NCBI GenBank assembly: GCA_030525685.1
Contig: JAUNEG010000012.1
Span: forward strand, 289 to 64,288
Length of the DNA stretch: 64,000 nucleotides
Source of the DNA: Atopobiaceae bacterium
GTDB taxonomy: Bacteria; Actinomycetota; Coriobacteriia; Coriobacteriales; Atopobiaceae
Direction of reading: 5' to 3'
Under the pieces are notes generated by a model that was given only the letters and a program-made list of their open reading frames with translations, was not told where the DNA came from and did not search any database. The position numbers and the translations under genes are program-made. The stretch's first letter is position 1, and every line of letters begins with the position of its first letter. This document shows positions 2,592 to 17,450 of this stretch, in pieces.

Positions 2592-3554
2592 CTACAGCAT
2601 GTTGCGCTCGGCGAACTCCGCCTGGACCGTGGCGAGCATGAGCTCGACGTCGTCGAGGCCGAGGTGCCGCTCGGACTCCCCCGCCCTGAGCGTGCCGCGC
2701 CGGCGCGCCCAGCTCTCGAGCGAGGCGGGCCGTTGCTCGTGAGGGAGCGTCTTGGTCTCGGGGTCCACGCGGCGGCAGATGTCGCGCGTGTCGATGGGCA
2801 CCACGCGCCCGGCCTTGCGCGCCTCCGCGTAGCCGTCGATGTGCAGCATGAACCACGAGTCCTCGAACGCGGCGTTGTGGGCCATGTACGGGTAGGCGGT
2901 GAGGGCGGCGAGAAGCGCCGCCTGGGCCCGGCTGTCCTCGCGGAACGGCCGCTTGCCCTCCAGGTCGGACCACGAGATCTTGTGGATGTCCGCCAGCGGC
3001 ACGCCCTTCTCGGCATACATCTCGGGCAGGCCGAAGTAGCCGGCAAAGGGGTCATGCGGGCGCGCGTCGGGGCCCACGGTCATGAACTCGAGGCCGACGT
3101 TGATGATGTAGCCGCGCGCGGGGTCGCGGTCGGTGGTCTCGATGTCGATGCCCACGACCATGCCCGAGACCGGCGCGTCCACCCACGCAACGTTGAGGTC
3201 GCGCGCGTCCGGTCCGGCGAGCCGCGCCACCTGCGCGTCACGCCGGTGCTGAAGCACGGCGACGGCATGGATCAGGTCCTCGTTCGAGAGGGAGCGAGCG
3301 AGCGTGGAGACGTTGACGTTGCGCAGGCGCTCGATGCCGTAGCGGTCGCAGAGGTCGCGGTTGCGGTCCGCGAGCGAGCGGATGAGGTCGAAGGCGCAGG
3401 GCTCATTGTCCGCCGGCGCATCGCGCCAGGCGCTCATGAGCGTGACCAGGGCGTCCTCGTTGCGCGTGCGCTCCGCGGAGAGCGTCGCGTCATCGGTGAG
3501 GAACCCCGGGAACACGAGGGCGCTCGCGCAGTCTATGGCCTGGCTGAGATCCAC
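2592..3554 (-). CDS. DEDDh-family 3'-5' exonuclease with N-terminal extension
   Basis: ExoI DIETT, ExoII HNAAFE, ExoIII HLGLDD; GTG start. Confidence 0.8.
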   Translation of the reverse strand: MDLSQAIDCASALVFPGFLTDDATLSAERTRNEDALVTLMSAWRDAPADNEPCAFDLIRSLADRNRDLCDRYGIERLRNVNVSTLARSLSNEDLIHAVAVLQHRRDAQVARLAGPDARDLNVAWVDAPVSGMVVGIDIETTDRDPARGYIINVGLEFMTVGPDARPHDPFAGYFGLPEMYAEKGVPLADIHKISWSDLEGKRPFREDSRAQAALLAALTAYPYMAHNAAFEDSWFMLHIDGYAEARKAGRVVPIDTRDICRRVDPETKTLPHEQRPASLESWARRRGTLRAGESERHLGLDDVELMLATVQAEFAERNML

Positions 3555-3699
3555 GAATGCTCACTCCCGTCAAAGGAAAAGACACCGAGAAGAACCCGGC
3601 GCCTTCCTAGGCTAGCAGAACGCCCGTGCCTGCGGGCGGAAAGCATGTCCCTGTCGAGGGAACGCATAACCCCGTGGATGGCCGGACCCACACAAGGGG

Positions 3700-3939
3700 G
3701 TGCTTAAGCTTTCGGGGTTGTTGTAGGTTCGCCGCATTCGAGCGCTTAAGAATTCGGAGTAGTTGTAGGCTCTGGCGCTGCTCCCTGTGGCGAGAAGTAC
3801 TTCTCGCCGATAAAACCGCAGTTGGCTCCTACGGGACAGCGCTTCTCGACGATGGAGCGCCCTCGGCGAGGCGCAACAACCCCAAATTCGTAAGCATCCA
3901 AACGACCGGACACTACAACTACCCCGAAGTCCTAAGCAC
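3700..3939. repeat. Intergenic element family A, copy 1 (nested inverted repeats around a palindrome)
   Basis: About 27-bp motif CTACAACTACCCCGAA.TC.TAAGCAC, reverse at 3700 and 3742, forward at 3873 and 3913; perfect 20-bp palindrome GGCGAGAAGTACTTCTCGCC at 3789-3808. Confidence 0.85.
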
Positions 3940-3997
3940 AAAGGGCGCCGACAAGCCCACGACAGGTGTAGCAGGCGCGAACCACCCCGCGCGACGC

Positions 3998-4519
3998 CTA
4001 CTCGGCGAGAAACACGCGGCCCTCGCGGCGCGGCTCGGCCTCGGGAACCTCCGCGGGGTACCCCAGGATGCAGTGGCCGATTCCCTCGTAGTCGCCCGCG
4101 ATGCCCAGCTCTGCGAGAATGGCCTTGCCCTCGGGCGCGTCGAACTCCTCGCGGGCGCGGTGGATCCAGCAGCTGCCCAGGCCGAGCGCATGCGCGGCGA
4201 GCATGAGGTTGCCCATCACGAGGCTGCCATCGTAGACGCGGTTGCGCTGGTCGCGCGGGGCGAGCACGACGAGGACGACCGGCGCGCCGTAGAACGGGTC
4301 GCGGTCGGGGTCGCCGATTATCTCCGCGTTCATGGCGGAGAGCCGGTCGCGCAGCTCGCGGTTCGTGATCGCGACGATGATGGGGTCCTGCTGGCCCATG
4401 CCGCTCGCCGCCCAGAGCGCGGCCTCGATCACGGCCTCGATCTGCTCTGTGCTCGGGACCTCGTCGGTGTAGGCGCGCACGCTGCGGCGCTCCTCCATGG
4501 CCCTGATGATCTCGTCCAT
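3998..4519 (-). CDS. Nitroreductase family protein
   Basis: RRSVRAY, WAASG, AAHALGLGSCWI motifs. Confidence 0.9.
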   Translation of the reverse strand: MDEIIRAMEERRSVRAYTDEVPSTEQIEAVIEAALWAASGMGQQDPIIVAITNRELRDRLSAMNAEIIGDPDRDPFYGAPVVLVVLAPRDQRNRVYDGSLVMGNLMLAAHALGLGSCWIHRAREEFDAPEGKAILAELGIAGDYEGIGHCILGYPAEVPEAEPRREGRVFLAE

Positions 4520-4576
4520 GATGCGCTCCTCTCGGGTGGGCCCGTCACGTTCGTTATACCCGAGAGGACGCGGCCG

Positions 4577-4944
4577 CTACCCCTCGACCTCGCGCAGCAG
4601 GTCGCGGGGTCCACGCCGTAGAGGCGAGCGAGCTTCACGAGGTTCGTGGTGGACGGCTCGGACGCGCCCTGCTCCCACTTCGAGACGGCCTGCCGGCTCA
4701 CGCCGAGCTTCTCGGCCACGAGCTCCTGCGTCATCTTGCAGCGCTCGCGGTGAGCGCGCAGCACCTCGCCGAGCGAGCGGCGCGCGGCCACGGTCTCGGG
4801 GCTCTTGTCAGCCTTCTCCTGCCGCAGGAACCAGCGGATGGCGAGGACCACCAGCACGATGAAGAGGACCCACGGAACAATACGGCCAAGGAGGATCGGA
4901 ATCAAGATTATCACGAGCTCCATCGGCCCCATCCCATAGATCAT
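4577..4944 (-). CDS. XRE-family HTH regulator with N-terminal transmembrane segment; apparent 1-nt frameshift near the 3' end
   Basis: MTQELVAEKLGVSRQAVSKWEQGASEPSTTNL HTH; AAGGAGG RBS; adding one base after GVDPA gives DLLREVEG-stop at 4577. Confidence 0.8.
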
Positions 4945-5011
4945 GACGCCCTCCTTACGCCGGCTTTGCCCCACTGTAGCCGAGCGCCGCGGTTGCGCAC
5001 ACCACCTATCG

Positions 5012-5278
5012 CGCAACGCGCGGAAGCGCATTGAGCACTTGCAGACTGACCCTAAAAGCTACTGCGTTTATATGCGCAATCTGTACTATGAGGAGCAAGC
5101 GGCCGAGAAGGAGAAGCGCCTCTCAGATTTTCTTTTGGAAAACCCAACAGCGTCCAAGCGTTCTGCGAGTAAGGCGCTTGGCATGTCCATGACGACCGTA
5201 TCGAAATACTGGTTATCGGCGTGTGAATCGGCTGGAATCAAAGACGCCAGAACCGGAAACCATTCGCCAAACTGTTAG
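5012..5278 (+). pseudogene. Detached C-terminal HTH portion of rep2
   Basis: RNARKRIEHL...DFLLENPTASKRSASKALGMSMTTVSKYW aligns with the rep1 tail (RNGRTQAEHV...EHPEASHSEIARALDVSRPTVIKW) and is in frame with rep2 across the 8-bp repeat. Confidence 0.75.
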
Positions 5279-5301
5279 GTAAATGCGCTGCTCATCATGG
5301 T

Positions 5302-5328
5302 ATACATATGCATGTTATACGTATGTAT
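5302..5328. promoter_or_regulatory. Putative RHH operator/centromere upstream of parA
   Basis: ATACATATGCAT (5302-5313) and ATACGTATGTAT (5317-5328), each one mismatch from palindrome ATACATATGTAT. Confidence 0.6.
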
Positions 5329-5343
5329 ACTAGGGAGGGAAAC

Positions 5344-5931
5344 GTGATAATCCCGGTTCTGAACATCAAGGGGGGCGTCGGCAAGACGACCACGGCCATA
5401 GCCCTCGCGACCGCAGCCGTCAGGGCTGGTCATGGGTCGAAGGTACTCGACGCCGACGAGCAGGGGAGCGCGACGCTGTGGGACGACACGGCTGAGCAGG
5501 CAGGTGAGCCCCTCCCCTTCCCCATCGACCCGATCAACGCGACGAGGATAAAGGCGCTCAGGCCGGAGGCCGACACATGGTGCTTCATCGACTGCGCCCC
5601 GAGCGGCAAGGCGCTCGACGCTGCCAAGGAGAAGGCCGACTTCGTCGTGATACCGACCACGCCAGCCGGTCTGGACATGCAGCAGACGTGGGTGACGGCC
5701 GAGAACCTTGTCGAGTCCGGCAAGCCGTATGCCGTGCTCCTCACGCGCACGCGCTCACACACGCTCGCGCTCGCAGCCGTGGAGCACGAGATGGAGGAGC
5801 GCGAGGCGTCGTACTTCGATGCGCAGATACCGCTGCGCGAGGACATCAAGAACTTCTTCGGGCACTCCTTCGGAAAGGACCTATACGGGTACGAGGACGT
5901 GTTCAAGGAGATTGAGGAGGCGCTTTCCTGA
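5344..5931 (+). CDS. parA: Small plasmid-type (type Ib) ParA ATPase
   Basis: Deviant Walker A KGGVGKTT, LDADEQGS, FIDCAP; no N-terminal HTH; GGGAGG RBS before GTG. Confidence 0.9.
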   Translation: MIIPVLNIKGGVGKTTTAIALATAAVRAGHGSKVLDADEQGSATLWDDTAEQAGEPLPFPIDPINATRIKALRPEADTWCFIDCAPSGKALDAAKEKADFVVIPTTPAGLDMQQTWVTAENLVESGKPYAVLLTRTRSHTLALAAVEHEMEEREASYFDAQIPLREDIKNFFGHSFGKDLYGYEDVFKEIEEALS

Positions 5932-6176
5932 TGGCGGTCAAGAAGAGGCCCAAGCCGATAATCGCCCCACAGCGGCAGAACGCCGGCCCGCTGCTCATGG
6001 ACAACCAAGACACCAAGAACAAAGGGGACGGCACGAAGGCACCGAAGAGGCCGACGACCATCCTCCTGCCGGACGACCTGAAGCGAGAGGCCCAGACATA
6101 CGCGGAGGAGCGCGGGACGACCCTGACAAGGCTCATCGTTGACGGACTTAGATGGAGGATTTCGCAGGTAGATTAG
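5931..6176 (+). CDS. Ribbon-helix-helix partition adaptor (ParG-like)
   Basis: Flexible N-terminus followed by TTILLPDDLKREAQTYAEERGTTLTRLIVDGL; start overlaps the parA stop. Confidence 0.75.
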   Translation: MAVKKRPKPIIAPQRQNAGPLLMDNQDTKNKGDGTKAPKRPTTILLPDDLKREAQTYAEERGTTLTRLIVDGLRWRISQVD

Positions 6177-6212
6177 CTATACATATGTATTTTATACATA
6201 TGTATAGCTAAT
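6171..6212. promoter_or_regulatory. Perfect 20-bp inverted repeat containing two ATACATATGTAT palindromes; putative centromere
   Basis: GATTAGCTATACATATGTAT-TT-ATACATATGTATAGCTAATC. Confidence 0.65.
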
Positions 6213-6217
6213 CTCAT

Positions 6218-6616
6218 CTAGGTCTTGTTTTTTGCATACAGCTCGTGGGAAGCGATGACGGCGGAATACAGTGAAATACATAAAGTAAATAACAGAAGGT
6301 GTGTCAAGTCGCTTGCAACGTGCTGTCTCAAGGCGTAGGCAGAAAATCCGTTTAGCAAATAAATAATACATGCAGATACGAGTGACGCTACGACACTGCT
6401 TCTGCGCCTATATGTTGAAAGAGCTACCAAAGCAATAAAAAACAGCGATATGAACCATTCTAAATAGGTTATTTCGCGCACTGAGAACGAGCATCCATGG
6501 AAATAATTAAAAACTGTATCTTTATATAGCAGATATAGAACAATCGAAGTAATCGTTGTTATGCTAATAAGATTCCTGGTAGACAAAACAACTACCTCTT
6601 CAGCGCCGTCGGCCAA
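6218..6616 (-). CDS. AT-rich multi-pass membrane protein (candidate immunity protein)
   Basis: 132-aa ORF with 3-4 hydrophobic stretches, directly downstream of a secreted protein; start codon uncertain. Confidence 0.6.
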   Translation of the reverse strand: MADGAEEVVVLSTRNLISITTITSIVLYLLYKDTVFNYFHGCSFSVREITYLEWFISLFFIALVALSTYRRRSSVVASLVSACIIYLLNGFSAYALRQHVASDLTHLLLFTLCISLYSAVIASHELYAKNKT

Positions 6617-6653
6617 ACGGGTTTGGCCGACGGCGATTGCTTCTGCTATATGC

Positions 6654-7268
6654 CTATGAAATCACAATATTGAAGCCCTGTCCTCCGGCCGTTGTTACAT
6701 CCAACGAGGCGTTGACATAGTAAACAACCACGATACCACTGTAGCTCTTGCTCTTATTCATACTCGTGCTCTTGACGTTATTTGCGGTATGAGACACGCT
6801 TCCCTCATACGCAATGACATATCCTCCAGAAACGACTCCATAGGATTGACAATTGACGCTCATGGTCATTGATTTTGGAGTCGAACCAGATGTTACTGTT
6901 GCTTTCGTATTGCCGCCGTAGTTGTATTCAAATGTTCCATTATGCCAAAAGCTTCCGCTGAAGCGTACTGTTGTCCCATACTGGGTTTTCGTTTGGTTGA
7001 AGTTTCTCGTTTGGTTTTGAGCTCTTGTTTGTGGCGATTGCGCGTCCATCGCATACATCTCAATGAACTTGGCATCTTCACCGGTAACTACGTCGCCTGG
7101 ATCATACTTATCGTAGAGTTCGTCGAAGCGTTCGCTGATTTGCTCTTGAGATAGATTAGATAAGGACTCTTCGGCATATGCCTGTGTCGGATTAAAGGCA
7201 GAAATCACAAGTGCCGTCAGCGCAAGGGTGATGGAGAATGCTAATGCAGCCATCCTTCTTGCAATCAT
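6654..7268 (-). CDS. Sec-secreted protein with acidic pro-like region and beta-rich C-terminal domain
   Basis: Signal peptide MIARRMAALAFSITLALTALVISAFNPTQAYA; AGGAGG RBS; AT-richer than host DNA. Confidence 0.8.
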   Translation of the reverse strand: MIARRMAALAFSITLALTALVISAFNPTQAYAEESLSNLSQEQISERFDELYDKYDPGDVVTGEDAKFIEMYAMDAQSPQTRAQNQTRNFNQTKTQYGTTVRFSGSFWHNGTFEYNYGGNTKATVTSGSTPKSMTMSVNCQSYGVVSGGYVIAYEGSVSHTANNVKSTSMNKSKSYSGIVVVYYVNASLDVTTAGGQGFNIVIS

Positions 7269-7454
7269 TTTTGCCTCCTTTACTCCGTCTGCTTATTCTG
7301 AAGGCGCGCCATCCGCTGACTTCAGAATGAATTATAATAGCCGCATGTTCATGGCTTTAGATTCATTCGATAGGCGGTAGGAATATGCCACTGGCGGTCC
7401 ACTCTTACACCGATACTCAAGTCGCATGGCCCGAGTTTTGCGATAAGTGCATTG

Positions 7455-7724
7455 TTATGCTTGGGCTGCTAGGTAGTAGTCAAGTGCGTCTCGGTAGACC
7501 TCTGAGGTCTTGACCCCCCGGCTGCGGGCTATCGCCGCCACGCGCTGCGTGTCTCTCGCGTCGTAGATGACCGTCACGCGGCGCTTGCCCACCGCGTCGA
7601 GGTGGGAGCCGGTGAAGACCTCTCCGCCCCCGCTCGGATAGTCTCCGCTCTCGTAGGGAGCGGCCATCGCGTCGAGTTCGGCGTCGGTGAGGCCGTGCTT
7701 CCTCATGTACTCGGATACGTTCAT
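7455..7724 (-). CDS. RHH/CopG-like antitoxin (BrnA-like)
   Basis: C-terminal RVTVIYDARDTQRVAAIARSRGVKTSEVYRDALD; follows the toxin gene. Confidence 0.7.
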   Translation of the reverse strand: MNVSEYMRKHGLTDAELDAMAAPYESGDYPSGGGEVFTGSHLDAVGKRRVTVIYDARDTQRVAAIARSRGVKTSEVYRDALDYYLAAQA

Positions 7725-7729
7725 GCTTC

Positions 7730-7990
7730 TCACCTCTCCAATCCTAGCTCGCGGAGCGTCTTGCCGGTCGGCGGTGTCATTCCGTGGAACACAAAGAAGA
7801 AGTCGTCCTCCTCGTCGTACTGGTAGACCAGCTCAACGAGCCTCCCCCTGCCGTCAAGGCCGACCGCCAGCCACTCGCCCGTCGGGCGCTGGTGATAGGA
7901 AATCATCCCGCGCATCGCGGCGGTGACGTCCTCCGGCGTGACCTCCGGGTGCCGCTGCGTGACCCTTGGGTGAACCCCTATCGTGCTCAA
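7730..7990 (-). CDS. BrnT-like toxin
   Basis: VHPRVTQRHPE...WLAVGLDGRGRLVELV...VFHGM pattern; toxin-first order; TTG start with GAGGAGG RBS. Confidence 0.7.
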   Translation of the reverse strand: MSTIGVHPRVTQRHPEVTPEDVTAAMRGMISYHQRPTGEWLAVGLDGRGRLVELVYQYDEEDDFFFVFHGMTPPTGKTLRELGLER

Positions 7991-8008
7991 GGCGTCCTCC
8001 TCTCGAAC

Positions 8009-8027
8009 ATATGATGTGACATCATAT
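8009..8027. promoter_or_regulatory. Putative TA operator
   Basis: Perfect inverted repeat ATATGATG-TGA-CATCATAT upstream of the toxin gene. Confidence 0.55.
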
Positions 8028-8385
8028 CATACTATGCTGATACCCAAGGACAGGAGACCCAAAACAGGGCGCTCGCGCAGCTGGATGGGCCGCACACACA
8101 GCCTAGAAATTGTGTTAGCTGGAATCCGTAAATTATGTTAAACGAGCTGGTGAACGATGTCGTTTTGACATGGAAGACCCCGGCCCTCGCGGCGCTCCGT
8201 TTGCGCCGTTGGTGCCGAGATCTTCGCTGCGGCGGTATCTCGTGGGCTGCGATTGCCCGGAGAGCCTACCGCGCCCGCCGTCCCTCTGGCTGCGGTTGCC
8301 CGACAACGGTTTGGCTGTCACCCGGATTGTAACCGACGCCCATACCCTGTTGGATAAAACAACCAGCCCTCGCGGCGGCAGTGCC

Positions 8386-8760
8386 TCAAACCGGCCTCAC
8401 GTCGCACTCGGGCACGTGCTTGTGGAGGCACGGCTCGCCGTCGCAGGCGGGCGACTCACGCACGAAGACGTCATAGGACCAGTCGCAGCCCTTGAAGGCC
8501 CTCCGCCCGCGCCCACGGTAGTCCACTGTCCCCACCGTCCCGGACAGCTCGCCCCACTTCGTCTCGAACCTCACGGCGTCGCCGACTTTGAAGCGCGGGC
8601 GGTGGCGTCGCGCCCATTCGTCCCAAGGCTCGCACTCCACGACGTTCGCCACGCCGCGCCGGTCTATGACGGCGGCGACGGCCTCCTCCATCGAGTCGGC
8701 ATCGACGGGAACGGGCACCCAGCTGCCGTCGTCCGTGAGCACCGTCACGCGCCACGTCAA
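8386..8760 (-). CDS. Hypothetical protein, 124 aa, with possible SH3/KOW-like C-terminal domain
   Basis: TTGA start/stop overlap with the upstream ORF; PRFKVGDAVRF...GTVGTVD. Confidence 0.55.
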   Translation of the reverse strand: MTWRVTVLTDDGSWVPVPVDADSMEEAVAAVIDRRGVANVVECEPWDEWARRHRPRFKVGDAVRFETKWGELSGTVGTVDYRGRGRRAFKGCDWSYDVFVRESPACDGEPCLHKHVPECDVRPV

Positions 8761-8924
8761 CGCCGACCACCGTCCTCCCGCCCCTCGACGGCCCCCTCCT
8801 GTATCGCGGCCACCGAGTCGATGATTTTCTTCATGTCCAGCGCGAGCTGACGGCACTCGGCCTTCGTCTCGCACGCCCCGAACCAGCGCACCACGTCGTC
8901 TGAGGCGACCTCCAAGAGGTTCAC
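8757..8924 (-). CDS. Small hypothetical protein, 55 aa
   Basis: GTG start with GGAAGG RBS; tightly packed between neighbouring ORFs. Confidence 0.45.
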   Translation of the reverse strand: MNLLEVASDDVVRWFGACETKAECRQLALDMKKIIDSVAAIQEGAVEGREDGGRR

Positions 8925-8928
8925 GGAC

Positions 8929-9081
8929 TTAACCCTTCCTGTCTGCCGCTTCCTCGCGATCCCTGCCTTTGCGCTCCCAAGTGCGCAGCCGCTTCGCGGC
9001 GTCAGCCGTCGGCAGCTCCTCGGCCCTGCACTCGGTGATTTTGTAGCCGTAGCGGTCAATCCACGCCGCCAGAGCGTCCAT
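8929..9081 (-). CDS. Small hypothetical protein, 50 aa
   Basis: MDALAAWIDRYGYKITEC...; first gene of an operon divergent from relBE. Confidence 0.4.
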   Translation of the reverse strand: MDALAAWIDRYGYKITECRAEELPTADAAKRLRTWERKGRDREEAADRKG

Positions 9082-9169
9082 GTCGATTTGCTTCCAGTCC
9101 CCGTCGCGAGCGTGGAAAGTTGTTATATAATAGTATATACCGACATACACCAACGAAGGGAGGGGCGAC

Positions 9170-9406
9170 ATGGCGACAGCGCTGACGGCAATCAGGGCGC
9201 CGGAGGAAGTGATGGAGCGCTACACGCGCCTCGCGCAGGGCACGGGCAGGTCGAGGAGCTTCTACATCAACGAGGCTCTTGAGGAGTCCATCGACCGCCT
9301 TGAGTACGAGTACGGGATTCTCCGCAAGGTCGAAGACTGGCGTGCGGGAAGGCTTGAGACCGTGAGCCTCGACGAGCTGGAGGACAGCCTTGGCTTGGCG
9401 GATTGA
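9170..9406 (+). CDS. relB: RHH antitoxin (RelB-like)
   Basis: TAIRAPEEVMERYTRLAQGTGRSRSFYINEAL; overlaps relE. Confidence 0.8.
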   Translation: MATALTAIRAPEEVMERYTRLAQGTGRSRSFYINEALEESIDRLEYEYGILRKVEDWRAGRLETVSLDELEDSLGLAD

Positions 9407-9662
9407 AATCGACAAGGACGTCCAGCGGGAGATGAAGAAGCTGGACAAGCAGGTCGCCAAGAGAATCACGGCCAAGCTGTGGGAAGTGTCGCAGCTCGAT
9501 GACCCGAGGAGCATGGGCAAGGGGCTGACCGGAAACCTCGCTGGTCTGTGGCGCTATCGGGTCGGCGACTACCGAATCATCTGCGACATCGAGGACGGCG
9601 TGCTTCTGATCCTCGTTGTCGATGTGGCGCACAGGCGCGAGGTCTACAAGCGCCGGGGATAG
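9390..9662 (+). CDS. relE: RelE/ParE-family toxin
   Basis: GKGLTGNLAGLWRYRVGDYRII...VAHRREVY. Confidence 0.9.
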   Translation: MAWRIEIDKDVQREMKKLDKQVAKRITAKLWEVSQLDDPRSMGKGLTGNLAGLWRYRVGDYRIICDIEDGVLLILVVDVAHRREVYKRRG

Positions 9663-9700
9663 CCGGAAGCCCCCTCGGACGCCGTTCCGCAGGGGGCTTC
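9661..9700 (+). terminator. Hairpin terminator; copy 1 of a 40-bp direct repeat
   Basis: GAAGCCCCCT...AGGGGGCTTC stem; 38/40 identical to 15526-15565. Confidence 0.8.
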
Positions 9701-9847
9701 CTCATGGGTGACCAATTACTGTATTGATAAATAAAAGGTCTGGCGGCGTGCCCGTATCGAGGGTGTAAAATAGCTTCATTGAATAATAATATGATCGGCG
9801 CCGCCGCCGCCGACCCCTATATGTTGTGGTTGGGGATGGAGGGTGCA

Positions 9848-11428
9848 ATGGCAGAGGTTCGGAGCGTTGACGAGCAGGTTGCCGAGTACGTCAACAAGCA
9901 CGCCGCCCTGATGCTTGAGCTTGGTGAGCCTGTGACGCCCTACCGCTTCTACCGTGAGGTGTTCCCGGAGGGCTTCTTGCAGGATGCCTACCGGGTGAAC
10001 CCCGCTGCGCCCCATGACGGGAAGTTCGTCGCCATCGCCAACGTGATTCACGAGAGGAAGGACGGCAAGGGCGTCTACCGCAGGAACCACTACGTCCTCG
10101 ATGACCTCACCCAGATAACCAAGTGGACGAACCAGGTGGCGTTCATGACCCCGTGCTCGTTCCTCGGTGGGGCCAAAGACCTCGAGCACCTGCGCTACCT
10201 GCACGCCATCGTCGTTGATCTCGACTACGTGGGCGCTCAGCAGCTCACGGACGTGTTCCACCAGTGCCAGATAGGGTTCCTCCCCACACCGACCTTCATC
10301 GTGAACTCCGGCACCGGGCTTCACCTGTACTACGTCCTAGAGCAGCCCGTCACCTGCTACAAGAAGCAGCAGGAGTGCTACAACGCCCTGAAGCACGCGC
10401 TCATCGACCTGTGCTGGAACGAGTACACGTCGCAGAGCGGCGACCGCCAGTACTCCGGTCTCGTGCAGCCCTACCGCATCCCCGGCACGCGGACGAAGCT
10501 CGACGTGGACAGGGAGACGCAGAGGGTCGTTTCGAGCGACTTCCCCGTGACCGCGTTCCGCTACGGCGGCAAGTGGACCATAGACGCGCTGCTCGACTGG
10601 GAGCCGCGCCCGAACGTCGGCACGCGCTACTACACCGAGCGCTGCGCCGGAATCCGAAAGATGCTGCGCGGCGAGATAGACGGCTTCGAGATAGCGAACA
10701 ACGGGCGCTACGTCGAGCACGGGGAGGGCAAGGTGCCGCTCGAGGTCGCCAAGGAGCGGTGGCCGGAGTGCTACGACCGCCGCATCCTGCACGGCGAGCC
10801 GCCGAAGGAAATCAAGGACTACAAGTGGCACGTGAACCCGCGCGTCTACGAGTGGTGGCTGCGCAAGATAAAGGCCGACGCGGAGCCGGGGCACCGGTAC
10901 CACTGCATCATGTGCCTCGCCATCTACGCCATCAAGTGCGACGTGCCCTACGCCAAGCTCAAGGAGGACGCCTACTCGCTCCTCGAGGTGTTCGACGGGC
11001 GCACCACCGAGGAGACGAACCACTTCCACGCCAGCGACATCGCCCAGGCGCTCAAGGCGTACCGAAACAAGGTCTACGCCACGTTCCCCATCGGCTCTAT
11101 CGAGTACTTCTCCGGCCTCCGAATTGATCGAAACCGCCGCAATGGTAGAACCCAAGCCGAGCACGTTGCGAGGATGAGCGCGCTTAGGGATGTTGACTAC
11201 CCAGACGGCTCATGGCGCAACAAGGGCGGCGCGCCCACGAAGAGCGAGCGGATACGCGCCTACGCCGTCGAGCACCCGGAGGCAAGCCACAGCGAGATTG
11301 CCCGCGCCCTCGACGTGTCCAGACCGACCGTAATCAAGTGGCTCAAGCCGGGGTGGCGCGAGGAGTGGGACGAGGAGCACAGGCCGCGCATCACCGGCCA
11401 CGTGCTCACGGTGAGATACGTCAGGTAG
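9848..11428 (+). CDS. Plasmid replication initiator rep1 (AEP/primase-like domain, helical domain, C-terminal HTH)
   Basis: VVDLD, NSGTGLHLYY, YRIPGT, PGHRYHCIM and C-terminal HTH; GGAGG RBS before ATG 9848. Confidence 0.8.
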   Translation: MAEVRSVDEQVAEYVNKHAALMLELGEPVTPYRFYREVFPEGFLQDAYRVNPAAPHDGKFVAIANVIHERKDGKGVYRRNHYVLDDLTQITKWTNQVAFMTPCSFLGGAKDLEHLRYLHAIVVDLDYVGAQQLTDVFHQCQIGFLPTPTFIVNSGTGLHLYYVLEQPVTCYKKQQECYNALKHALIDLCWNEYTSQSGDRQYSGLVQPYRIPGTRTKLDVDRETQRVVSSDFPVTAFRYGGKWTIDALLDWEPRPNVGTRYYTERCAGIRKMLRGEIDGFEIANNGRYVEHGEGKVPLEVAKERWPECYDRRILHGEPPKEIKDYKWHVNPRVYEWWLRKIKADAEPGHRYHCIMCLAIYAIKCDVPYAKLKEDAYSLLEVFDGRTTEETNHFHASDIAQALKAYRNKVYATFPIGSIEYFSGLRIDRNRRNGRTQAEHVARMSALRDVDYPDGSWRNKGGAPTKSERIRAYAVEHPEASHSEIARALDVSRPTVIKWLKPGWREEWDEEHRPRITGHVLTVRYVR

Positions 11429-11433
11429 GGCGG

Positions 11434-11488
11434 GTGTGCTCGCTTTGTCGCACACGGTAGAATGGGGTGTGCGCGCTTTGTGGCACAC
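11434..11488. promoter_or_regulatory. Two 22-bp GTGTG...CACAC repeats with 33-bp period flanking TAGAAT (copy 1)
   Basis: GTGTGCTCGCTTTGTCGCACAC (11434) and GTGTGCGCGCTTTGTGGCACAC (11467); repeated at 11850-11904. Confidence 0.65.
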
Positions 11489-11502
11489 CCGGCTCAACAG
11501 GG

Positions 11503-11844
11503 GAGTACTTCTCCGGCCTCCGAATTGATCGAAACCGCCGAAATGGAAACAGGCAAGCGGAACACCTCGAAGAGGCGCGTGCCATACGCGACGTTAGGCA
11601 GAAGCGCAAAGGCTCGAACTGGTGGGACAACGGGAACAGGAGCGGTGCGCCGGAGAAGAAGAACATCGTGCGCGCCTATGCCGTCGAGCATCCGGGCGAG
11701 AGCAACAGGAAGGTCGCCGCAGCGCTCGGAATGAGCCGCAACACCGTCAACAAGTGGCTCAAGCCGGGGTGGCGCGAGGAGTGGGACGAGGAGCACAGGC
11801 CGCTCATCACCGGCCACGTGATCACGGTGAGGCGCGGCAGATAG
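11503..11844 (+). other. Start-less alternative 3' cassette of rep1 (second HTH tail)
   Basis: Begins with 38 bp identical to 11102-11139; open frame EYFSGLRIDRNRRNG...HTH...TVRRGR-stop; no RBS or ATG. Confidence 0.85.
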
Positions 11845-11924
11845 GGCGGGTGTGCTCGCTTTGTCCCACACGGTAGAATGAGGTGTGCGCGCTTTGTGGC
11901 ACACCCGGATCAACAGGGGAAACG

Positions 11925-12239
11925 ATGGCGGAGAAGAGCAAGAACACACAACACATATCGCTGCGCGTGCCGCTCAAGGAGCTGTCCGTCATAGACATCT
12001 ACGCCGCCGCGAACGACCTCTCCCGCGCACAGGCCGTGCTCCACTTCGTGCGTCAGAGCATCGCCGCCGAGACGGGGGAGAAGCCGGTTACGAAGTCAGA
12101 CCTCGTCGCCCTCGCAGCCACGCTCACGAAGGCAATCGAGAGCCAGCCCGTCAGCGTGCAGCTGCCGCCGCAGCCACCGCCCCCGGCGCTCGAGTCGAGC
12201 AAGCAGAAGAAGCGACCGTGGTGGCGGTTCTGGGGCTGA
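11925..12239 (+). CDS. RHH (CopG-like) plasmid protein with basic-aromatic C-terminal tail
   Basis: QHISLRVPLKELSVIDIYAAANDLSRAQAV; ends KKRPWWRFWG. Confidence 0.7.
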   Translation: MAEKSKNTQHISLRVPLKELSVIDIYAAANDLSRAQAVLHFVRQSIAAETGEKPVTKSDLVALAATLTKAIESQPVSVQLPPQPPPPALESSKQKKRPWWRFWG

Positions 12240-12558
12240 GCTCCCGATAGTCGTGGTTGGCCCTTCCATTCAGTAGGGTGTCAAATTGTGCACCCTTGAC
12301 CTAATGCGACACATCCGTTCATGGCGCTGATTTATCCATTAGCCGAACAGTAAAGATGTTCTGTTCTCTTAGGGCGAGGTCAGGGTATATCCCATCAATC
12401 AAACTGCATTGGCGAGGGGTGGGTTTATGTCTCCGATAGATTTTGTCCGCATCAGAACCCATTATCCCCGTGAAAATGGCCTCCTATCCTAGCGGTACCG
12501 AATCGCATTCGATGCCGCCAATCACTCAGCAAAATGGTGATGATATTGGAGGTGCCTC

Positions 12559-13263
12559 ATGAAGCTCACGCGCAGAACCTTTCTTTCGTCCGCTGCGGCT
12601 GCCGCCTCGTTTCTTCTAATCCCCAAGAGTGCACTTGCAGCGCAGACTGATGATGTCGGTGAATTTCCAGATGAGTCTCCTGTTTCGGTCGAGATAATCG
12701 ATGAGGATACTTTTTCTATCCAGGACTCCTACGGGACATGGATTGTTTCCATTAGTGAATCTGGCCCGTACAGAATCACTGCTGCCGTGGCTCCGGATGG
12801 ATCTCAGGAAACCATTTCCTATAACAGGAAAACTGGAGAGGCCTATTCGTCAGCTACGGTTCAGGTTGTTATTCTCGGGGTTGATGAAACCTATCAAGAT
12901 GTCCCGGAGACCAAGGGTGTTATCGACCATGATCCTCAGCCAATTTACAATGGGCCATCGAGGAAGGAAACCGAGTACATCTCGTATCAGCAGCTGAAGT
13001 CGATTGCTGGAAGCGTGTCGAATGTTGCCGGCATTCTGATAGCAATAGCCGGTATCGTTGGATTTTCCATCGTTGGGACGTTCGTCGCCGGATTCGTTAA
13101 CGACAACATAGGACGCATCCTCGACGCCCTTTCCGATGGTGACCCCAATCATGGCCTAAAGCTCAAAGTTACTTTGACTGAACGGTATACCATCCATCCC
13201 ACGACCGGGGCTCACATTTACTACGACACTCTCAGGACCGTAAACAGCGTTAGCTTCTATTAG
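12559..13263 (+). CDS. Twin-arginine-signal secreted protein with hydrophobic C-terminal segment (candidate bacteriocin/toxin)
   Basis: TRRTFL Tat motif and ALA cleavage site; GILIAIAGIVGFSIVGTFVAGFV hydrophobic run; GGAGG RBS. Confidence 0.75.
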   Translation: MKLTRRTFLSSAAAAASFLLIPKSALAAQTDDVGEFPDESPVSVEIIDEDTFSIQDSYGTWIVSISESGPYRITAAVAPDGSQETISYNRKTGEAYSSATVQVVILGVDETYQDVPETKGVIDHDPQPIYNGPSRKETEYISYQQLKSIAGSVSNVAGILIAIAGIVGFSIVGTFVAGFVNDNIGRILDALSDGDPNHGLKLKVTLTERYTIHPTTGAHIYYDTLRTVNSVSFY

Positions 13264-13279
13264 CTGGCGATTTGCACGA

Positions 13280-13705
13280 TTGGATGAACCAATGGCGCTG
13301 CGAAAAATGGACGATCGGAGCACCCGAATCAACAAGATTGCCTCCATCGTTTTTGCCGTCTGCTTTGTGACAATGGTTGCTGTCGGTTCGATGCAGGATG
13401 TCGTCCTCCCCGTCAGACTTGCCCTTGCCATCGTGGGGACGCTAGCCGCATTTTTAGGAAGCCCGCTGTTCGGACGACTCGGCATGACGTGGGTTTCCTT
13501 TTTCTTCGTCTCCGGAATCTTGAGGATGTCGGCAGATGCGAGAATTCAGTTTGCCCTTCTCGTAATTGAGGCGGCATTGATTGTCTTCTACATTGGGCTT
13601 GTCAGAACTGGGAAGTGTAAAGACGAGCAAAAAGTGGGGGGAATCGCGCTAGTGGTAGCCGACGTCCTATTATTTGCAGATGTTGCCATGACTCATGTGA
13701 TTTAG
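13280..13705 (+). CDS. Four-to-five-TM membrane protein (candidate immunity protein)
   Basis: Hydrophobic 141-aa ORF starting 16 nt after the Tat-protein stop; an inverted repeat AAGGGTCGATGG/CCATCGACCCTT follows near 13819-13853. Confidence 0.65.
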   Translation: MDEPMALRKMDDRSTRINKIASIVFAVCFVTMVAVGSMQDVVLPVRLALAIVGTLAAFLGSPLFGRLGMTWVSFFFVSGILRMSADARIQFALLVIEAALIVFYIGLVRTGKCKDEQKVGGIALVVADVLLFADVAMTHVI

Positions 13706-14045
13706 TGCAACGTTTCCGTGGCTCCGACTCTCATGACGCAGTGTTCCGACCCTTTGGGCCGGAACGACTCCCCTGGTTCGAACAAGAAAGTCACACGCGC
13801 TCGCAGGCTTGGGCAAAGAAAGGGTCGATGGAGCAGAGCGTCCATCGACCCTTAATCAAGTCTGGTCTTGTCGGCTGACCGTCGCGTCAATTCCGCAATC
13901 CGTGAACGAGGTCTCCGTAGATCCGCTGCGCGGAACTACTCCGCCCCCGTGGTCACGCATTGCTGCATTGACCCGACTACCCTTCCTCACCTGCAAGCAA
14001 ATCATATCTGTAGCTCTTGAGATACTCGCGCATGAATTTACCTAT

Positions 14046-14327
14046 TTACGCTATGGCCATGAGGCCGTCGGCGAGGATTCCACGGGCATATGCGCCCGTT
14101 GACTTGCCCTCGGCCTTCGCTTCCTTCTCAAGAGCCCGCTTCATGGCGGCGGGAACCTTGAGTGACAGCGTCACGGTCTCGGGCGCGGCCTTCGGGAGCT
14201 TGCCCTCGACGATCTCGCCGACGTTGACCCATCCGCTGGGCCACTCATCGCGCTCAAGGGCGCTTTCCCAGTCGGCAATCATCTCGTCGGTCACGACCCT
14301 GCCGTTCTCGGCAACAATTCCGTTCAT
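14046..14327 (-). CDS. RHH antitoxin (BrnA/CopG-like)
   Basis: ETVTLSLKVPAAMKRALEKEAKAEGKSTGAYARGIL; GGAGG RBS. Confidence 0.7.
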   Translation of the reverse strand: MNGIVAENGRVVTDEMIADWESALERDEWPSGWVNVGEIVEGKLPKAAPETVTLSLKVPAAMKRALEKEAKAEGKSTGAYARGILADGLMAIA

Positions 14328-14329
14328 GT

Positions 14330-14584
14330 CTACCTCCATCCCAGCTCACGCTTGAATTTCTTCGCCGGCGGCACCATCGCGTGAAACACGCACCAGACGC
14401 CGTCGATATCCATGAACCCAATCAGCTCGGCAAACCTCCCATCGGGAAGCGAGCCGACCGAAATCCAGAGCGGCGGGTCATCCGTGCCGTTTCGCTGGCG
14501 GCACCGAATCGGGTTCTCCCACGCATACGCGACTTCCTCGCTGGTAAGCCCGTGCTTGAGGGCGTTCCCGTGCACTCTGACCAC
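14330..14584 (-). CDS. BrnT-like toxin
   Basis: VHGNALKHGL...WISVGSLPDGRFAELI...VFHAM. Confidence 0.75.
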   Translation of the reverse strand: MVRVHGNALKHGLTSEEVAYAWENPIRCRQRNGTDDPPLWISVGSLPDGRFAELIGFMDIDGVWCVFHAMVPPAKKFKRELGWR

Positions 14585-15024
14585 TGCCGTCCTCCCTTCT
14601 TTTCTAGTAAGTATACCCTATTAGTATACCAAATCAAAAGCACCGTGCTCCCAACACGCAAACGGGGGTGGCGTCACCCCCGTTTCCATGCCGCGAGCAC
14701 TCTCGCACTGCTGTACTAGCAGTGCTCACCGGCCAAGGCCACTCTCCGAGTTGCAAGATTTGGGAAAGGGTACTCAAATCCCGCTTTTGGCGGCATTTTC
14801 CTCCCTTTCCATCTTGCCTTTCGGGCGGACTTAGGGTCCCTCCCGAAAGGGGGTAAGAACACGCGGATGGCTTCATCCTTGATATAGTCCAAAACCGCGT
14901 TTTCGGACTTCCGAAAAACGCTTTCGGGAAATCGGCACGGTGGCTTCACCGTGGTTCCCGATTCCCGATTTCTGAAAACCGCAAACCCACGATTAGAGAA
15001 AGGGGGCTGGAACCCGCTCCGCAG

Positions 15025-15249
15025 ATGGTCTCAGAGAGCCTCAGAGCGCCCTGGACGGCTCGAAGCGATGGAGCGCGAGAGGAAAGCTTGCAGGAGAGGT
15101 TGAGGGCCTTAGAAAGCGAATCAGAGCGTTTGAAGGCCAAAATCAGCGAGCGCGAGAGCGAGTGGCGGAGCTTGACCGAGGGCTGTCTGGGCTTCGAGTG
15201 GGACGACCGCCAGTGGCGTGCAAGCTTCGTGTCCCGTCAACGGACGTAA
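15025..15249 (+). CDS. Short coiled-coil ORF, possibly a remnant
   Basis: LQERLRALESESERLKAKISERE heptad pattern; no clear RBS. Confidence 0.3.
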   Translation: MVSESLRAPWTARSDGAREESLQERLRALESESERLKAKISERESEWRSLTEGCLGFEWDDRQWRASFVSRQRT

Positions 15250-15418
15250 AACGTCCTTATCGACGGGACACCGGGCGGTCCCCTCCCGGCTTGCCCTTGC
15301 CCGCGCGAGGGAGGGCCGGCCCGCGCCGGCCGCCGCTCCCGCGGGGCGGGAGGGCACCGCCCCGCGGCGGTGCGAGAGCGGGCCCCGCGGCCCGCACGTC
15401 AGGGAAGGTGGTGCGTCG

Positions 15419-15511
15419 GTGAAGGTGACGAGCGCGCCCGGCCTCATCGCGGGAATCGCCCTGCCGGTCGTCATCTTCGGAGCCGGGTTCCTCCTCGGCA
15501 AGGACAGGTAG
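15419..15511 (+). CDS. 30-aa single-TM peptide (candidate type I toxin)
   Basis: MKVTSAPGLIAGIALPVVIFGAGFLLGKDR; GTG start with GGAAGG upstream; terminator follows. Confidence 0.5.
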   Translation: MKVTSAPGLIAGIALPVVIFGAGFLLGKDR

Positions 15512-15525
15512 ACGGCCAGCAGGAG

Positions 15526-15565
15526 AGCCGGAAGCCCCCTCGGGAGCCGTTCCGCAGGGGGCTTC
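15526..15565 (+). terminator. Hairpin terminator; copy 2 of the 40-bp direct repeat
   Basis: 38/40 identical to 9661-9700. Confidence 0.8.
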
Positions 15566-15764
15566 GTCTTGGCCGCGAGGCCAGTTGTCGTAACAACGAA
15601 ATACGGGCTATCAGCCTTGGCTTGGTACGGAAAAACGGGCTTCCAAGGGACCGTTTTCCGTACCAAGTGATACACTTCTATTGTTCAAATTACACCCCTC
15701 AATGCTGACTGTGGGGATAGGGCAAGGGAAGGGGAGTCCCCTTCCGCTCGGATTGGAGGTCCCC

Positions 15765-17450
15765 ATGCCTTCCGGCCGCATCACTCCCGACCATCCGACC
15801 GTACGCATCAACCCCTTTGAAATTCGCTCCTCCTCCCTTCCCGACGAGCAGAAGGAAGCCCTCCTCGCCTTCTGGAGCGAGCAGCAGCTCGCCGAGGAGG
15901 CCGAGCGTCAGGAGAGGGAGCTGGCGTATCAGACGGAGCAGGCCCGCTTCGTCCTGTCCCAGCCCGGCTGGTGCGAGATTCGCGCCGATTGGCTCGACCA
16001 AGCGCGGAACAGGCGGGACAGGAACGAGTGGTGCTTGGACTCCGCTGCAAGGTCATACGTCTACGACGATGACGGCAGGGGATACAGTCTCCTCTCCCTG
16101 CCCGAGGACGTTCCGACAATCCATCAGTTCTACCGTGACCTCTACGGCACCGAGGTGTCCGCCTTCCTGCCCGAGCCCTGCCCCATCCTCGTCAACCACC
16201 GGGACAGGAAGCACCCATATCAGGTCTATGACGACTACGAGACGTTCACAGAGGCCGTCCAGAAGGAGACGTCCTTCATCTACCTCGGGAGATTCTGGGA
16301 GCCGACCCGCAGGGACGGGCTCAGGTTCTCGACGTCAAAGAAGAACGTCATGACGCACATAAGCGGCGTGTGCGTGGACATCGACCGCGTCGAGGACGAC
16401 AAGGGTCAGCACTTCCAAGCGAGATGGGTGATGGAAAGCCTCTTCGAGTTCCTTTGGGAGAACGAGGGTCTTACGCCGAACTATCTCATGCTCTCGGGAA
16501 CGGGCATCCAGCTATGGTACGTGTTCGGCCAGTCCATACCCCTGCTGTCGAAGTCATCCCCGAGGCGTTCCAAGTACGATTCCTTCATCAAACTCCTGTA
16601 CGCCCACTTCGACGAGAGGCTGCCGAAGAACAGGTTCAAGGTCGATAAGGCGTGCGCCGCCTACAACCATGCCTTCCGCGCCCCCGGCTCCCCTTCAAAG
16701 AACGGGTATCCGGCCCGTCTCTTCGTGAGGGAAGGCGCGAGCCGCCCCATGATTGATCCAATCGCCCTTTCCGACCAAATCGGGGCCGAGCTGAAGCCCT
16801 ATGACGTCGGCGATTGGGATTCCGATGGGTTTGCGGCCATGACCGGCAGGAAGGGCGGCGGAAAGTCGCCAGCGAGCGAAAAGCAGCTTGCCTACATCCG
16901 CAAGCTTCACGCCAGGGGGTGCATAGATGACGAGACGTTCGGCAGGGCCGCCGAGATGACCATCGCCGATGCCGACGCTGCCATCAAGGCTGGAGAGAGC
17001 TCGTTCGTGAACGGTCTGCACTGGCGCGAGACGCAGGGAGGGTATGCCGAGACGACCAACGGGCACCGCGTGAAGCTCAGGCCGAGGAGCAGGAAGCTCT
17101 ACGAAAACACGCTCGAAAGGGTGCTCGCCGAGACGAAGCCCGGCTCGCGCTACATGTCGATGTTCGTCTTGGCTGGCCTCGCCTACAACTGCAACGTCTC
17201 GAAATCGTCTCTAGAGCACGACCTGAGAAAGCTCATGGACAGCGACTGGGGGCGCAAGCCGTCGCCGTCCGACGGGCATCCCATAACGATGCGAGACATA
17301 CGCTCGGCCATGAAGGGATACAACCCGATTGGGTGTCTGAGGAGCAGGGAGATAATCGAGGGGCTTGTCGGCTGGTCGTTCGGCCCGTCGGCGAAGCGCA
17401 ACGGCAGGTTGCGTTTCGGTTGCGGCGGGAACGTCCGCCTGGGGGCCTAG
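15765..17450 (+). pseudogene. Replication initiator rep2, interrupted at 17403; last 15 codons are host-derived
   Basis: CVDID, LSGTGIQLWY, FRAPGS, PGSRYMSM; similarity to rep1 ends at KRN and the HTH tail lies at 5012-5278. Confidence 0.75.

Follow-up and report, generated by a model that had tools for sequence, protein, structure and literature searches.

Two Rep tail alleles in tandem within an integrated plasmid of an Atopobiaceae bacterium: a likely recombination scar of module exchange

Introduction

Why should a plasmid replication gene be followed directly by a second, different version of its own 3' end? The question is raised by rep1, which encodes a full-length replication initiator (Rep) of 526 aa (9848-11428), in a 64,000-nt stretch of DNA from an Atopobiaceae bacterium (assembly GCA_030525685.1, contig JAUNEG010000012.1, positions 289 to 64,288; hereafter the window). 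The 3' part of rep1 belongs to unit 1 of a tandem, and unit 2 follows head to tail with a divergent C-terminal helix-turn-helix (HTH) tail. A preliminary description of the window had proposed that unit 2 is a silent cassette stored behind a ColE2-type Rep, which could switch the origin that the initiator recognizes. We consider it reasonably likely that the tandem is instead a scar left by a single recombination event, which caught two related gut plasmids in the act of exchanging modules. The data do not support a dedicated specificity switch.

Results

Structure of the tandem

Unit 1 (11102-11502, 401 nt) comprises the last 109 codons of rep1 and a 74-nt intergenic region. Unit 2 (11503-11918) has 416 nt, and a single 15-nt in-frame indel accounts for the difference in length. 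All features of rep1 and the tandem lie on the forward strand. Both units open with the same 38-nt sequence, the 5' box (copy 1, 11102-11139; copy 2, 11503-11540), which encodes EYFSGLRIDRNRR, where the helical domain of Rep gives way to the tail. The two copies are identical at 38/38 positions, also to the corresponding sequence of plasmid L007, described below, and about 3e-14 repeats of this length would be expected by chance in 64 kb. The units close with 3' boxes (11335-11502 versus 11751-11918) that differ at 10 of 168 nt (94% identity), with a longest perfect run of 53 nt. The repeat tool carries these boxes on to 11504 and 11920, so their ends overlap at the junction by the dinucleotide GA.

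Between the boxes the units differ strongly. The variable middle of unit 1 (11140-11334) consists of linker type 1 (11140-11254) and HTH type 1 (11255-11334, SHSEIARALDVSRPTVIKW), and that of unit 2 of linker type 2 (11541-11670) and HTH type 2 (11671-11750, SNRKVAAALGMSRNTVNKW). Both HTH segments score as Pfam HTH_23, unit 2 at 3.8e-7, and the recognition helices of the two tails read SRPTVIKW and SRNTVNKW. The coding part of unit 2 is a 5'-truncated rep fragment of 113 codons and a stop (11503-11844), running from 5' box copy 2 through linker and HTH to the conserved C-terminal end. Repeat and codon comparisons thus bear out the preliminary description of the tandem in its 38-bp 5' box, its 3' box of about 168 bp, its divergent in-frame middle and both HTH strings.

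In the middles, synonymous substitutions per site (dS) are saturated at about 1.1 and nonsynonymous substitutions per site (dN) are about 0.49, with coding kept, versus a dS of about 0.1 in the boxes. This pattern points to old alleles that lie between recently shared flanks, rather than to a duplication followed by divergence. The comparison supports the view that unit 2 is a genuine alternative Rep tail allele rather than a decayed copy of unit 1.

The junction between the units (11502-11505) is novel: here the end of the intergenic region is joined to rep codon 419 (526-aa numbering). It reads CAACAGGG/GA/GTACTTC, and the microhomology at the join is only the 2 nt GA.

The junction in an independent assembly

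If two strain alleles of a single-tail rep had been strung together during assembly, the tandem would be an artefact. The genome is a 49-contig draft that is 92.6% complete and resembles a metagenome bin, both allele types are present in gut samples, and the exact junction word has no match in genome_contigs or in any indexed sequencing run, all of which would fit such an error. We therefore turned to an independent assembly, the Logan contigs (k=31) of sample SRR24915832. Contig L171 corresponds to window positions 2808-11131 and L172 to 11774 to about 23813, both 100% identical to the window. L171 ends exactly 30 nt into the first 5' box (11131 = 11102+29). This is the base predicted for a real repeat, because the word starting at 11102 then has a second predecessor, namely the junction; a bubble of two alleles would have ended the contig at 11139. 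The end at 11131 therefore indicates that the junction word is present in the read set. Nor would a bubble of alleles contain a word connecting CAACAGGGGA with GTACTTC, which must therefore come from the reads, and the flanking contigs show no strain variation, being 100% identical over 8.3 and 6.5 kb. A look-up by exact protein match for small Logan unitigs of the same sample that would cover unit 1, unit 2 or the junction found none on record. These data indicate that the junction is very probably real, and we regard an assembly artefact as very improbable.

Tail alleles in related plasmids

The preliminary description had suggested a survey of homologous rep genes for full-length alleles with either tail and for similar tandem cassettes. 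Both tail types and mixed forms were found, each singly, and no similar tandem: among 163 related loci carrying the Rep tail, a second tail was present in 0.

The closest view of a free relative is given by L007/L008, a 7,532-nt Logan contig whose 30-nt terminal overlap identifies it as a circular mobilisable plasmid of about 7.5 kb. It occurs in three samples and is collinear with window positions 8953-13693, with genes for MobA/MobL, RelB, ParE, Rep, a ribbon-helix-helix (RHH) protein and a 234-aa protein. Its Rep is 90% identical to that of rep1 and carries a single mosaic tail, with a linker like that of unit 2 (91.5%) and an HTH like that of unit 1 (88.8%). In a contig from another sample (L173), tail 1 is followed directly by the RHH gene, and a further single-tail relative (P0010) also has the unit 1 tail type.

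Contigs from other gut samples add to this picture. One holds unit 1 only (X1). Another (X6) holds unit 2 only, apparently as the sole tail behind a rep body, the separate rep-body contig ending at 11135; X5 has only pieces of unit 2 and of the sequence downstream. In X7 a single recombinant tail joins 11226 to 11643. Among full-length homologues, all four combinations of linker types 1 and 2 with HTH types 1 and 2 occur, independent of core identity. With near-identical copies of unit 2 in other samples and every linker/HTH combination among homologues, the earlier proposal that a related plasmid was the source of unit 2 is well supported.

The rep1 protein and its family

The open frame of rep1 runs from a TTG at 9779 to 11428. 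A Shine-Dalgarno (SD) sequence, GGAGGG, precedes the ATG at 9848, and the N-termini of homologues (MAEV/MSEV, including P0002 and P0003) agree with this ATG. Translation therefore probably starts at 9848, giving a protein of 526 aa rather than 549. The protein is predicted to consist of an archaeo-eukaryotic primase (AEP) primase-polymerase core, a helical domain, a flexible linker and the C-terminal HTH (tail 1). In the AlphaFold model (pLDDT 80), a low-confidence linker is followed by a well-folded three-helix HTH, and the 5' box sits at the end of the helical domain, directly before the linker. The unit would thus start at a domain boundary.

Foldseek searches with this model matched the AEP domain of the PrimPol of cyanophage S-2L (6zp9, E 2.7e-6, TM(target) 0.63) and the RSF1010 primase RepB' (3h20, E 5.2e-6). 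The motifs VVDLDY and NSGTGLHLYY, which correspond to the acidic DxD and sGxGxH-type motifs of AEP enzymes, are invariant in 20 homologues. ColE2 initiators have been defined by the combination of PF03090 and PriCT (10.1101/2024.09.03.610885). Against these ColE2 families rep1 gave no match at E<=0.01 or at E<=10, the only Pfam matches being to HTH families, and no sequence match to Rep was found among Protein Data Bank chains. The term ColE2-type used in the preliminary description is therefore apt for the AEP fold and the C-terminal HTH architecture and does not extend to family membership. Judged by the modelled structure, rep1 encodes a plasmid initiator of the AEP-primase type that ends in an HTH; it is ColE2-like in fold and architecture and outside the ColE2 family by sequence.

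At least 648 homologues make up this Rep family, and most of them lie on contigs of 2-10 kb. Some are encoded on complete plasmids of 5-7 kb from Collinsella, Blautia, Enterococcus faecium and C. difficile, in which the protein is usually annotated as hypothetical; Clostridia are also among the gut hosts. An iteron search within the island that contains rep1 (see below) gave nothing convincing, and no origin was identified.

The 3' box and the downstream RHH gene

Part of the 3' box codes for the C-terminal end of Rep. About 75 nt of it are non-coding and make up the hairpin, -10 and ribosome-binding site (RBS) region of the downstream gene. Copy 1 (11335-11504) contains the last 31 codons of rep1 and the stop (to 11428), then hairpin 1 (11434-11455, GTGTGC-N10-GCACAC), a -10-like element (11456-11463, GGTAGAAT), hairpin 2 (11466-11489, GGTGTGC-N10-GCACACC) and, at the junction, an orphan RBS copy, AGGGGA (11499-11504). 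Copy 2 (11751-11920) holds the end of the rep fragment, hairpins at 11850-11871 and 11882-11905, a -10 element at 11874-11879 and the functional RBS at 11915-11920. Here AGGGGA stands 4 nt 5' of the ATG of the RHH-like gene (11925-12239, forward strand), which encodes 104 aa with a weak VapB/RHH match; the gene that follows rep in plasmid L007 is 97.5% identical to it.

Several relatives have apparent regulatory sequence for the next gene at this place. GGTAGAAT is also kept after rep in L007 and L010, and the distant relative L138 has a classical promoter, TTGACA-N17-TAGAAT, for the next gene at the equivalent position. Relative L012 carries another RHH gene with its own palindromes just 5' of it. 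A promoter consensus scan that needs a -35 element found no match. We infer that the non-coding part of the 3' box serves the next operon as promoter, operators and RBS, with the RHH gene as its probable owner, and the half-sites at 11434-11489 and 11850-11905 are probably operators of the RHH protein.

The four half-sites GTGTGC/GCACAC bracket the -10-like, GGAGAAT-type element GGTAGAAT, and an alternative, single nested fold is possible. RNA folding gave z scores of -3.5 for copy 1 (11434-11489) and -0.55 for copy 2 (11850-11905). L007 has three hairpin repeats after rep, compared with two per unit in the window.

We also considered the hairpins after rep as iterons for the HTH. Both HTH types precede the same hairpins, the hairpins are absent after the type-1 tails of L010 and L011, and relatives carry a promoter or palindromes for the next gene at that position, so this idea is unsupported. 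As the same cis region lies 3' of both tail types, no pairing of tail type with site is visible.

Expression of unit 2

Whether unit 2 can be expressed bears directly on any function it might have. Read-through or frameshifting from rep1 is ruled out: since 401 = 3n+2, unit 2 falls in the +2 frame with respect to rep1, and its own frame has a stop at 11458-11460. The preliminary description had stated that unit 2 lacks both RBS and ATG. An RBS copy is in fact present at the junction, the AGGGGA at 11499-11504; what is missing is a start, since no ATG, GTG or TTG follows it. The only in-frame canonical starts for unit 2 are GTG 11467, inside hairpin 2 and about 4 nt past the -10 element, and GTG 11668, which would give a 58-aa HTH peptide and whose GGAG, 12 nt upstream, has poor SD spacing. 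Unit 2 is probably transcribed from the duplicated promoter yet untranslated.

An alternative would be that unit 2 is expressed alone as a tail-only HTH protein, from GTG 11668 or from a non-canonical start. Such a protein could regulate rep or the RHH operon, or bind the origin of competitor plasmids with tail 2 and so act as an incompatibility or exclusion factor. The duplicated -10-like element and hairpins directly upstream of unit 2 would suit this role, as would a frame that stays open for 113 codons with its HTH_23 domain and the in-frame GTG with an upstream GGAG. N-terminally truncated Rep regulators exist in other plasmids, for instance the short forms of R6K pi. In pIGRK, RepR', an in-frame truncated Rep, inhibits replication (PMC6854812), and by analogy the full initiator could be opposed by a polypeptide that consists solely of its C-terminal DNA-binding domain; RepR' differs in that it arises from an internal start within one rep gene, compared with a separate downstream piece with no convincing start here.

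Against expression stand the copied RBS that has no start at a working distance and the poor SD spacing of GTG 11668. No stand-alone tail genes were found among proteins of the size of unit 2: the only two matches were P0122, a contig-end fragment, and P0121, which reads as a C-terminal piece of rep. The tandem is also unconserved among the 163 related loci. We therefore consider a tail-only protein unlikely.

Crossover between the boxes and the integrated replicon

The preliminary description had pointed out that a crossover in the 38-bp boxes would give Rep the second tail and that one in the 3' boxes would delete it. Codon comparison agrees, as both predicted products are in frame, with 531 aa and tail 2 in the first case and 526 aa and tail 1 in the second. 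The repeats that flank the units are direct only, so any resolution would be a one-way deletion.

On this geometry one could argue that unit 2 is a stored silent allele, kept because a single crossover in the 38-nt box would swap the Rep tail and so give a new origin specificity or an escape from incompatibility. The recognition helices do differ between the tails, natural exchange of tail modules is clear, and in ColE2-related replicons the variable C-terminal end of Rep has been linked to specificity and to the coexistence of related plasmids (PMC5304414). A tail swap might then alter origin specificity. However, the RepA-PFP replicons call for caution: compatibility was at first proposed to depend on the variable C-terminal end of Rep, but experiments traced incompatibility to the control module rather than to that end (PMC5304414). 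The tandem is unique among the 163 loci, a 38-nt box is near the lower limit for homologous recombination, and irreversible deletion is the only exchange that direct repeats allow. Inverted repeats are not associated with the units, and a recombinase domain was found in none of the island open reading frames (ORFs) scanned, some small ORFs being outside the scan. The cis region shared by both tail types likewise shows no pairing with one tail or the other.

The state of the replicon also bears on this question. rep1 and the tandem lie in a plasmid-derived island with two rep genes (5011-17403, 12.4 kb) of lower GC, bounded by an 8-bp repeat, GCGCAACG, inside chromosomal sequence. The island contains ParA, RelB/ParE, rep1 with the tandem, the RHH gene, the 234-aa protein and rep2. 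Both of its ends are crossed by Logan contigs L171 and L172 at 100% identity, which demonstrates that the plasmid is integrated in the chromosome. Joining 17403 to 5019 at GCGCAACG restores rep2 in frame with its own HTH tail (...ENPTASKRSASKALGMSMTTVSKYW...). The integration is thus a second microhomology event, of 8 bp, and illegitimate recombination has acted on this element more than once. This suggests that Rep function may be dispensable in the integrated replicon and no longer under selection, and an integrated replicon has no obvious use for specificity switching. The idea of a stored cassette or origin switch, also weakened by the 2-nt microhomology of the join, is not supported, and we rate a selectively kept silent allele as quite unlikely.

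Discussion

Origin of the tandem

The reading that we favour, a one-off scar of module exchange, would proceed as follows. The two parents would have been small, closely related plasmids of a single AEP-primase Rep family, with near-identical flanks and different linker-plus-HTH alleles. A single illegitimate join with 2 nt of microhomology (GA), between these co-resident relatives or within their heterodimer, would have connected a point just past the RBS of the post-rep gene in one copy to rep codon 419 in the other. In the product, rep1 would be intact and end in tail 1. Behind it would come the duplicated promoter, operator and RBS region, the truncated rep fragment with tail 2 and, last, the RHH gene's own normal promoter and RBS. 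The fragment may persist because the event was recent and neutral and the replicon is now chromosomal. RecA-type recombination at the direct repeats might later delete either tail, in which case the geometry would be a by-product and not a dedicated switch.

Some observations weigh against this reading. Close relatives (>75% identity) are few, so the uniqueness of the tandem is weak evidence at short evolutionary distance. The promoter is a prediction from sequence, and the evidence for the junction comes from two assemblies of what is probably one read set. Unit 2 is fully open, and its GC content at third codon positions (GC3) of 0.80 is coding-like, so selection on unit 2 is possible. The duplicated promoter might yield a unit 2 transcript, and GTG 11668 might yield the 58-aa HTH peptide.

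Comparison with known systems

One close parallel is with partial tandem duplications and truncated rep remnants that arise by illegitimate recombination. The tandem has the same head-to-tail order, a 2-nt microhomology, a truncated second copy lacking signals for expression, and a single occurrence. As in such duplications, a novel junction with little homology is present, and the end of L171 at 11131 indicates its presence in reads. It differs in that the second copy is a divergent allele from a relative, which makes the repeat a mosaic with identical ends and a saturated middle.

Programmed systems such as pilE/pilS, shufflons and phase-variable hsdS are conserved, usually multi-copy and reversible, and work by gene conversion or site-specific inversion. 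The tandem resembles silent-cassette systems in that an expressed gene lies beside an alternative 3' segment that lacks a promoter or a start and has conserved boxes in common with it. Unlike them, the tandem is single-copy and unconserved, and its repeats, all direct, permit deletion in one direction only. A cassette without its own start is present, and recurrence is absent: no second tail in 163 loci, with L007/L008 and L173 single-tailed. The geometry and machinery for reversible exchange are likewise lacking, given direct repeats only, one spare cassette and no recombinase in the scanned ORFs.

The RepA-PFP/RepJ replicons of Pseudomonas and the ColE2/ColE3 chimeras, like rep1, combine a primase core with a C-terminal HTH, and the C-terminal end is the most variable part (PMC5304414). 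In ColE2-related replicons, coexisting relatives swap replicon segments, and the cis sites are placed at the 3' end of rep or directly behind it (PMC5304414). The present case differs from them in a Rep outside PF03090 and PriCT at E<=10, in a high-GC gut Gram-positive host and in an origin that the iteron search did not locate. It also differs in that two tail alleles stand in an unresolved tandem rather than a finished chimera.

What the tandem means

Taken alone, the tandem would be a single neutral-looking rearrangement in an integrated plasmid and not a new mechanism. Its value would lie in capturing a rare unresolved intermediate in the swapping of a C-terminal DNA-binding module between related plasmid initiators, in a large and uncharacterised family (>600 homologues). 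Three module boundaries, namely the 5' box, the RAYAVEHP patch and the KWLKPGW box, offer natural chimeras with which the origin-reading part of Rep could be found. There is a slim chance that the fragment has been kept for a function, either as an alternative recognition tail that can be grafted onto Rep or as a tail-only decoy that blocks competitor plasmids with tail 2. If so, an uncharacterised AEP-primase Rep family from gut plasmids would include a plasmid-encoded device that changes or polices which origin is recognised.

rep2 and other features of the island

The second initiator gene of the island, rep2 (15681-17403, with its HTH tail continuing at 5019-5278), is 24% identical to rep1 and has no Pfam match even at E<=10. 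Its break, KRN/A, aligns with the RNRR codons that close the 5' box of rep1, so both reps are broken or mosaic at the boundary of core and tail.

Because the 5' box is perfectly identical in three sequences and rep2 is broken at the equivalent codons, we examined the 38-nt box as a cis-acting site (origin or nick). By codon-level conservation in six rep genes the box falls outside the 15 most conserved windows, so this candidate is not supported.

A 51-nt GC-rich hairpin, GGAAGCCCCCT...AGGGGGCTTCC, lies upstream of both rep1 (9657-9707) and rep2 (15522-15572); the two copies are 90% identical, and the hairpin also occurs in L007. In addition, L007 2874-2961 matches window positions 15424-15511 at 96.6%. 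The common hairpin and this match indicate that two very different reps share a backbone context.

The 234-aa protein (12559-13263) is encoded in sequence of lower GC and has no Pfam match. It is kept after the RHH gene in L007 (6112-6816, about 70% nucleotide identity).

AT-rich palindromes, TATACATATG...CATATGTATA, at 5301-5329 and 6178-6206 (also 6170-6214) flank the ParA gene and an 81-aa gene, and one of them is a perfect 21-nt inverted repeat. These palindromes are candidate partition (centromere-like) sites.

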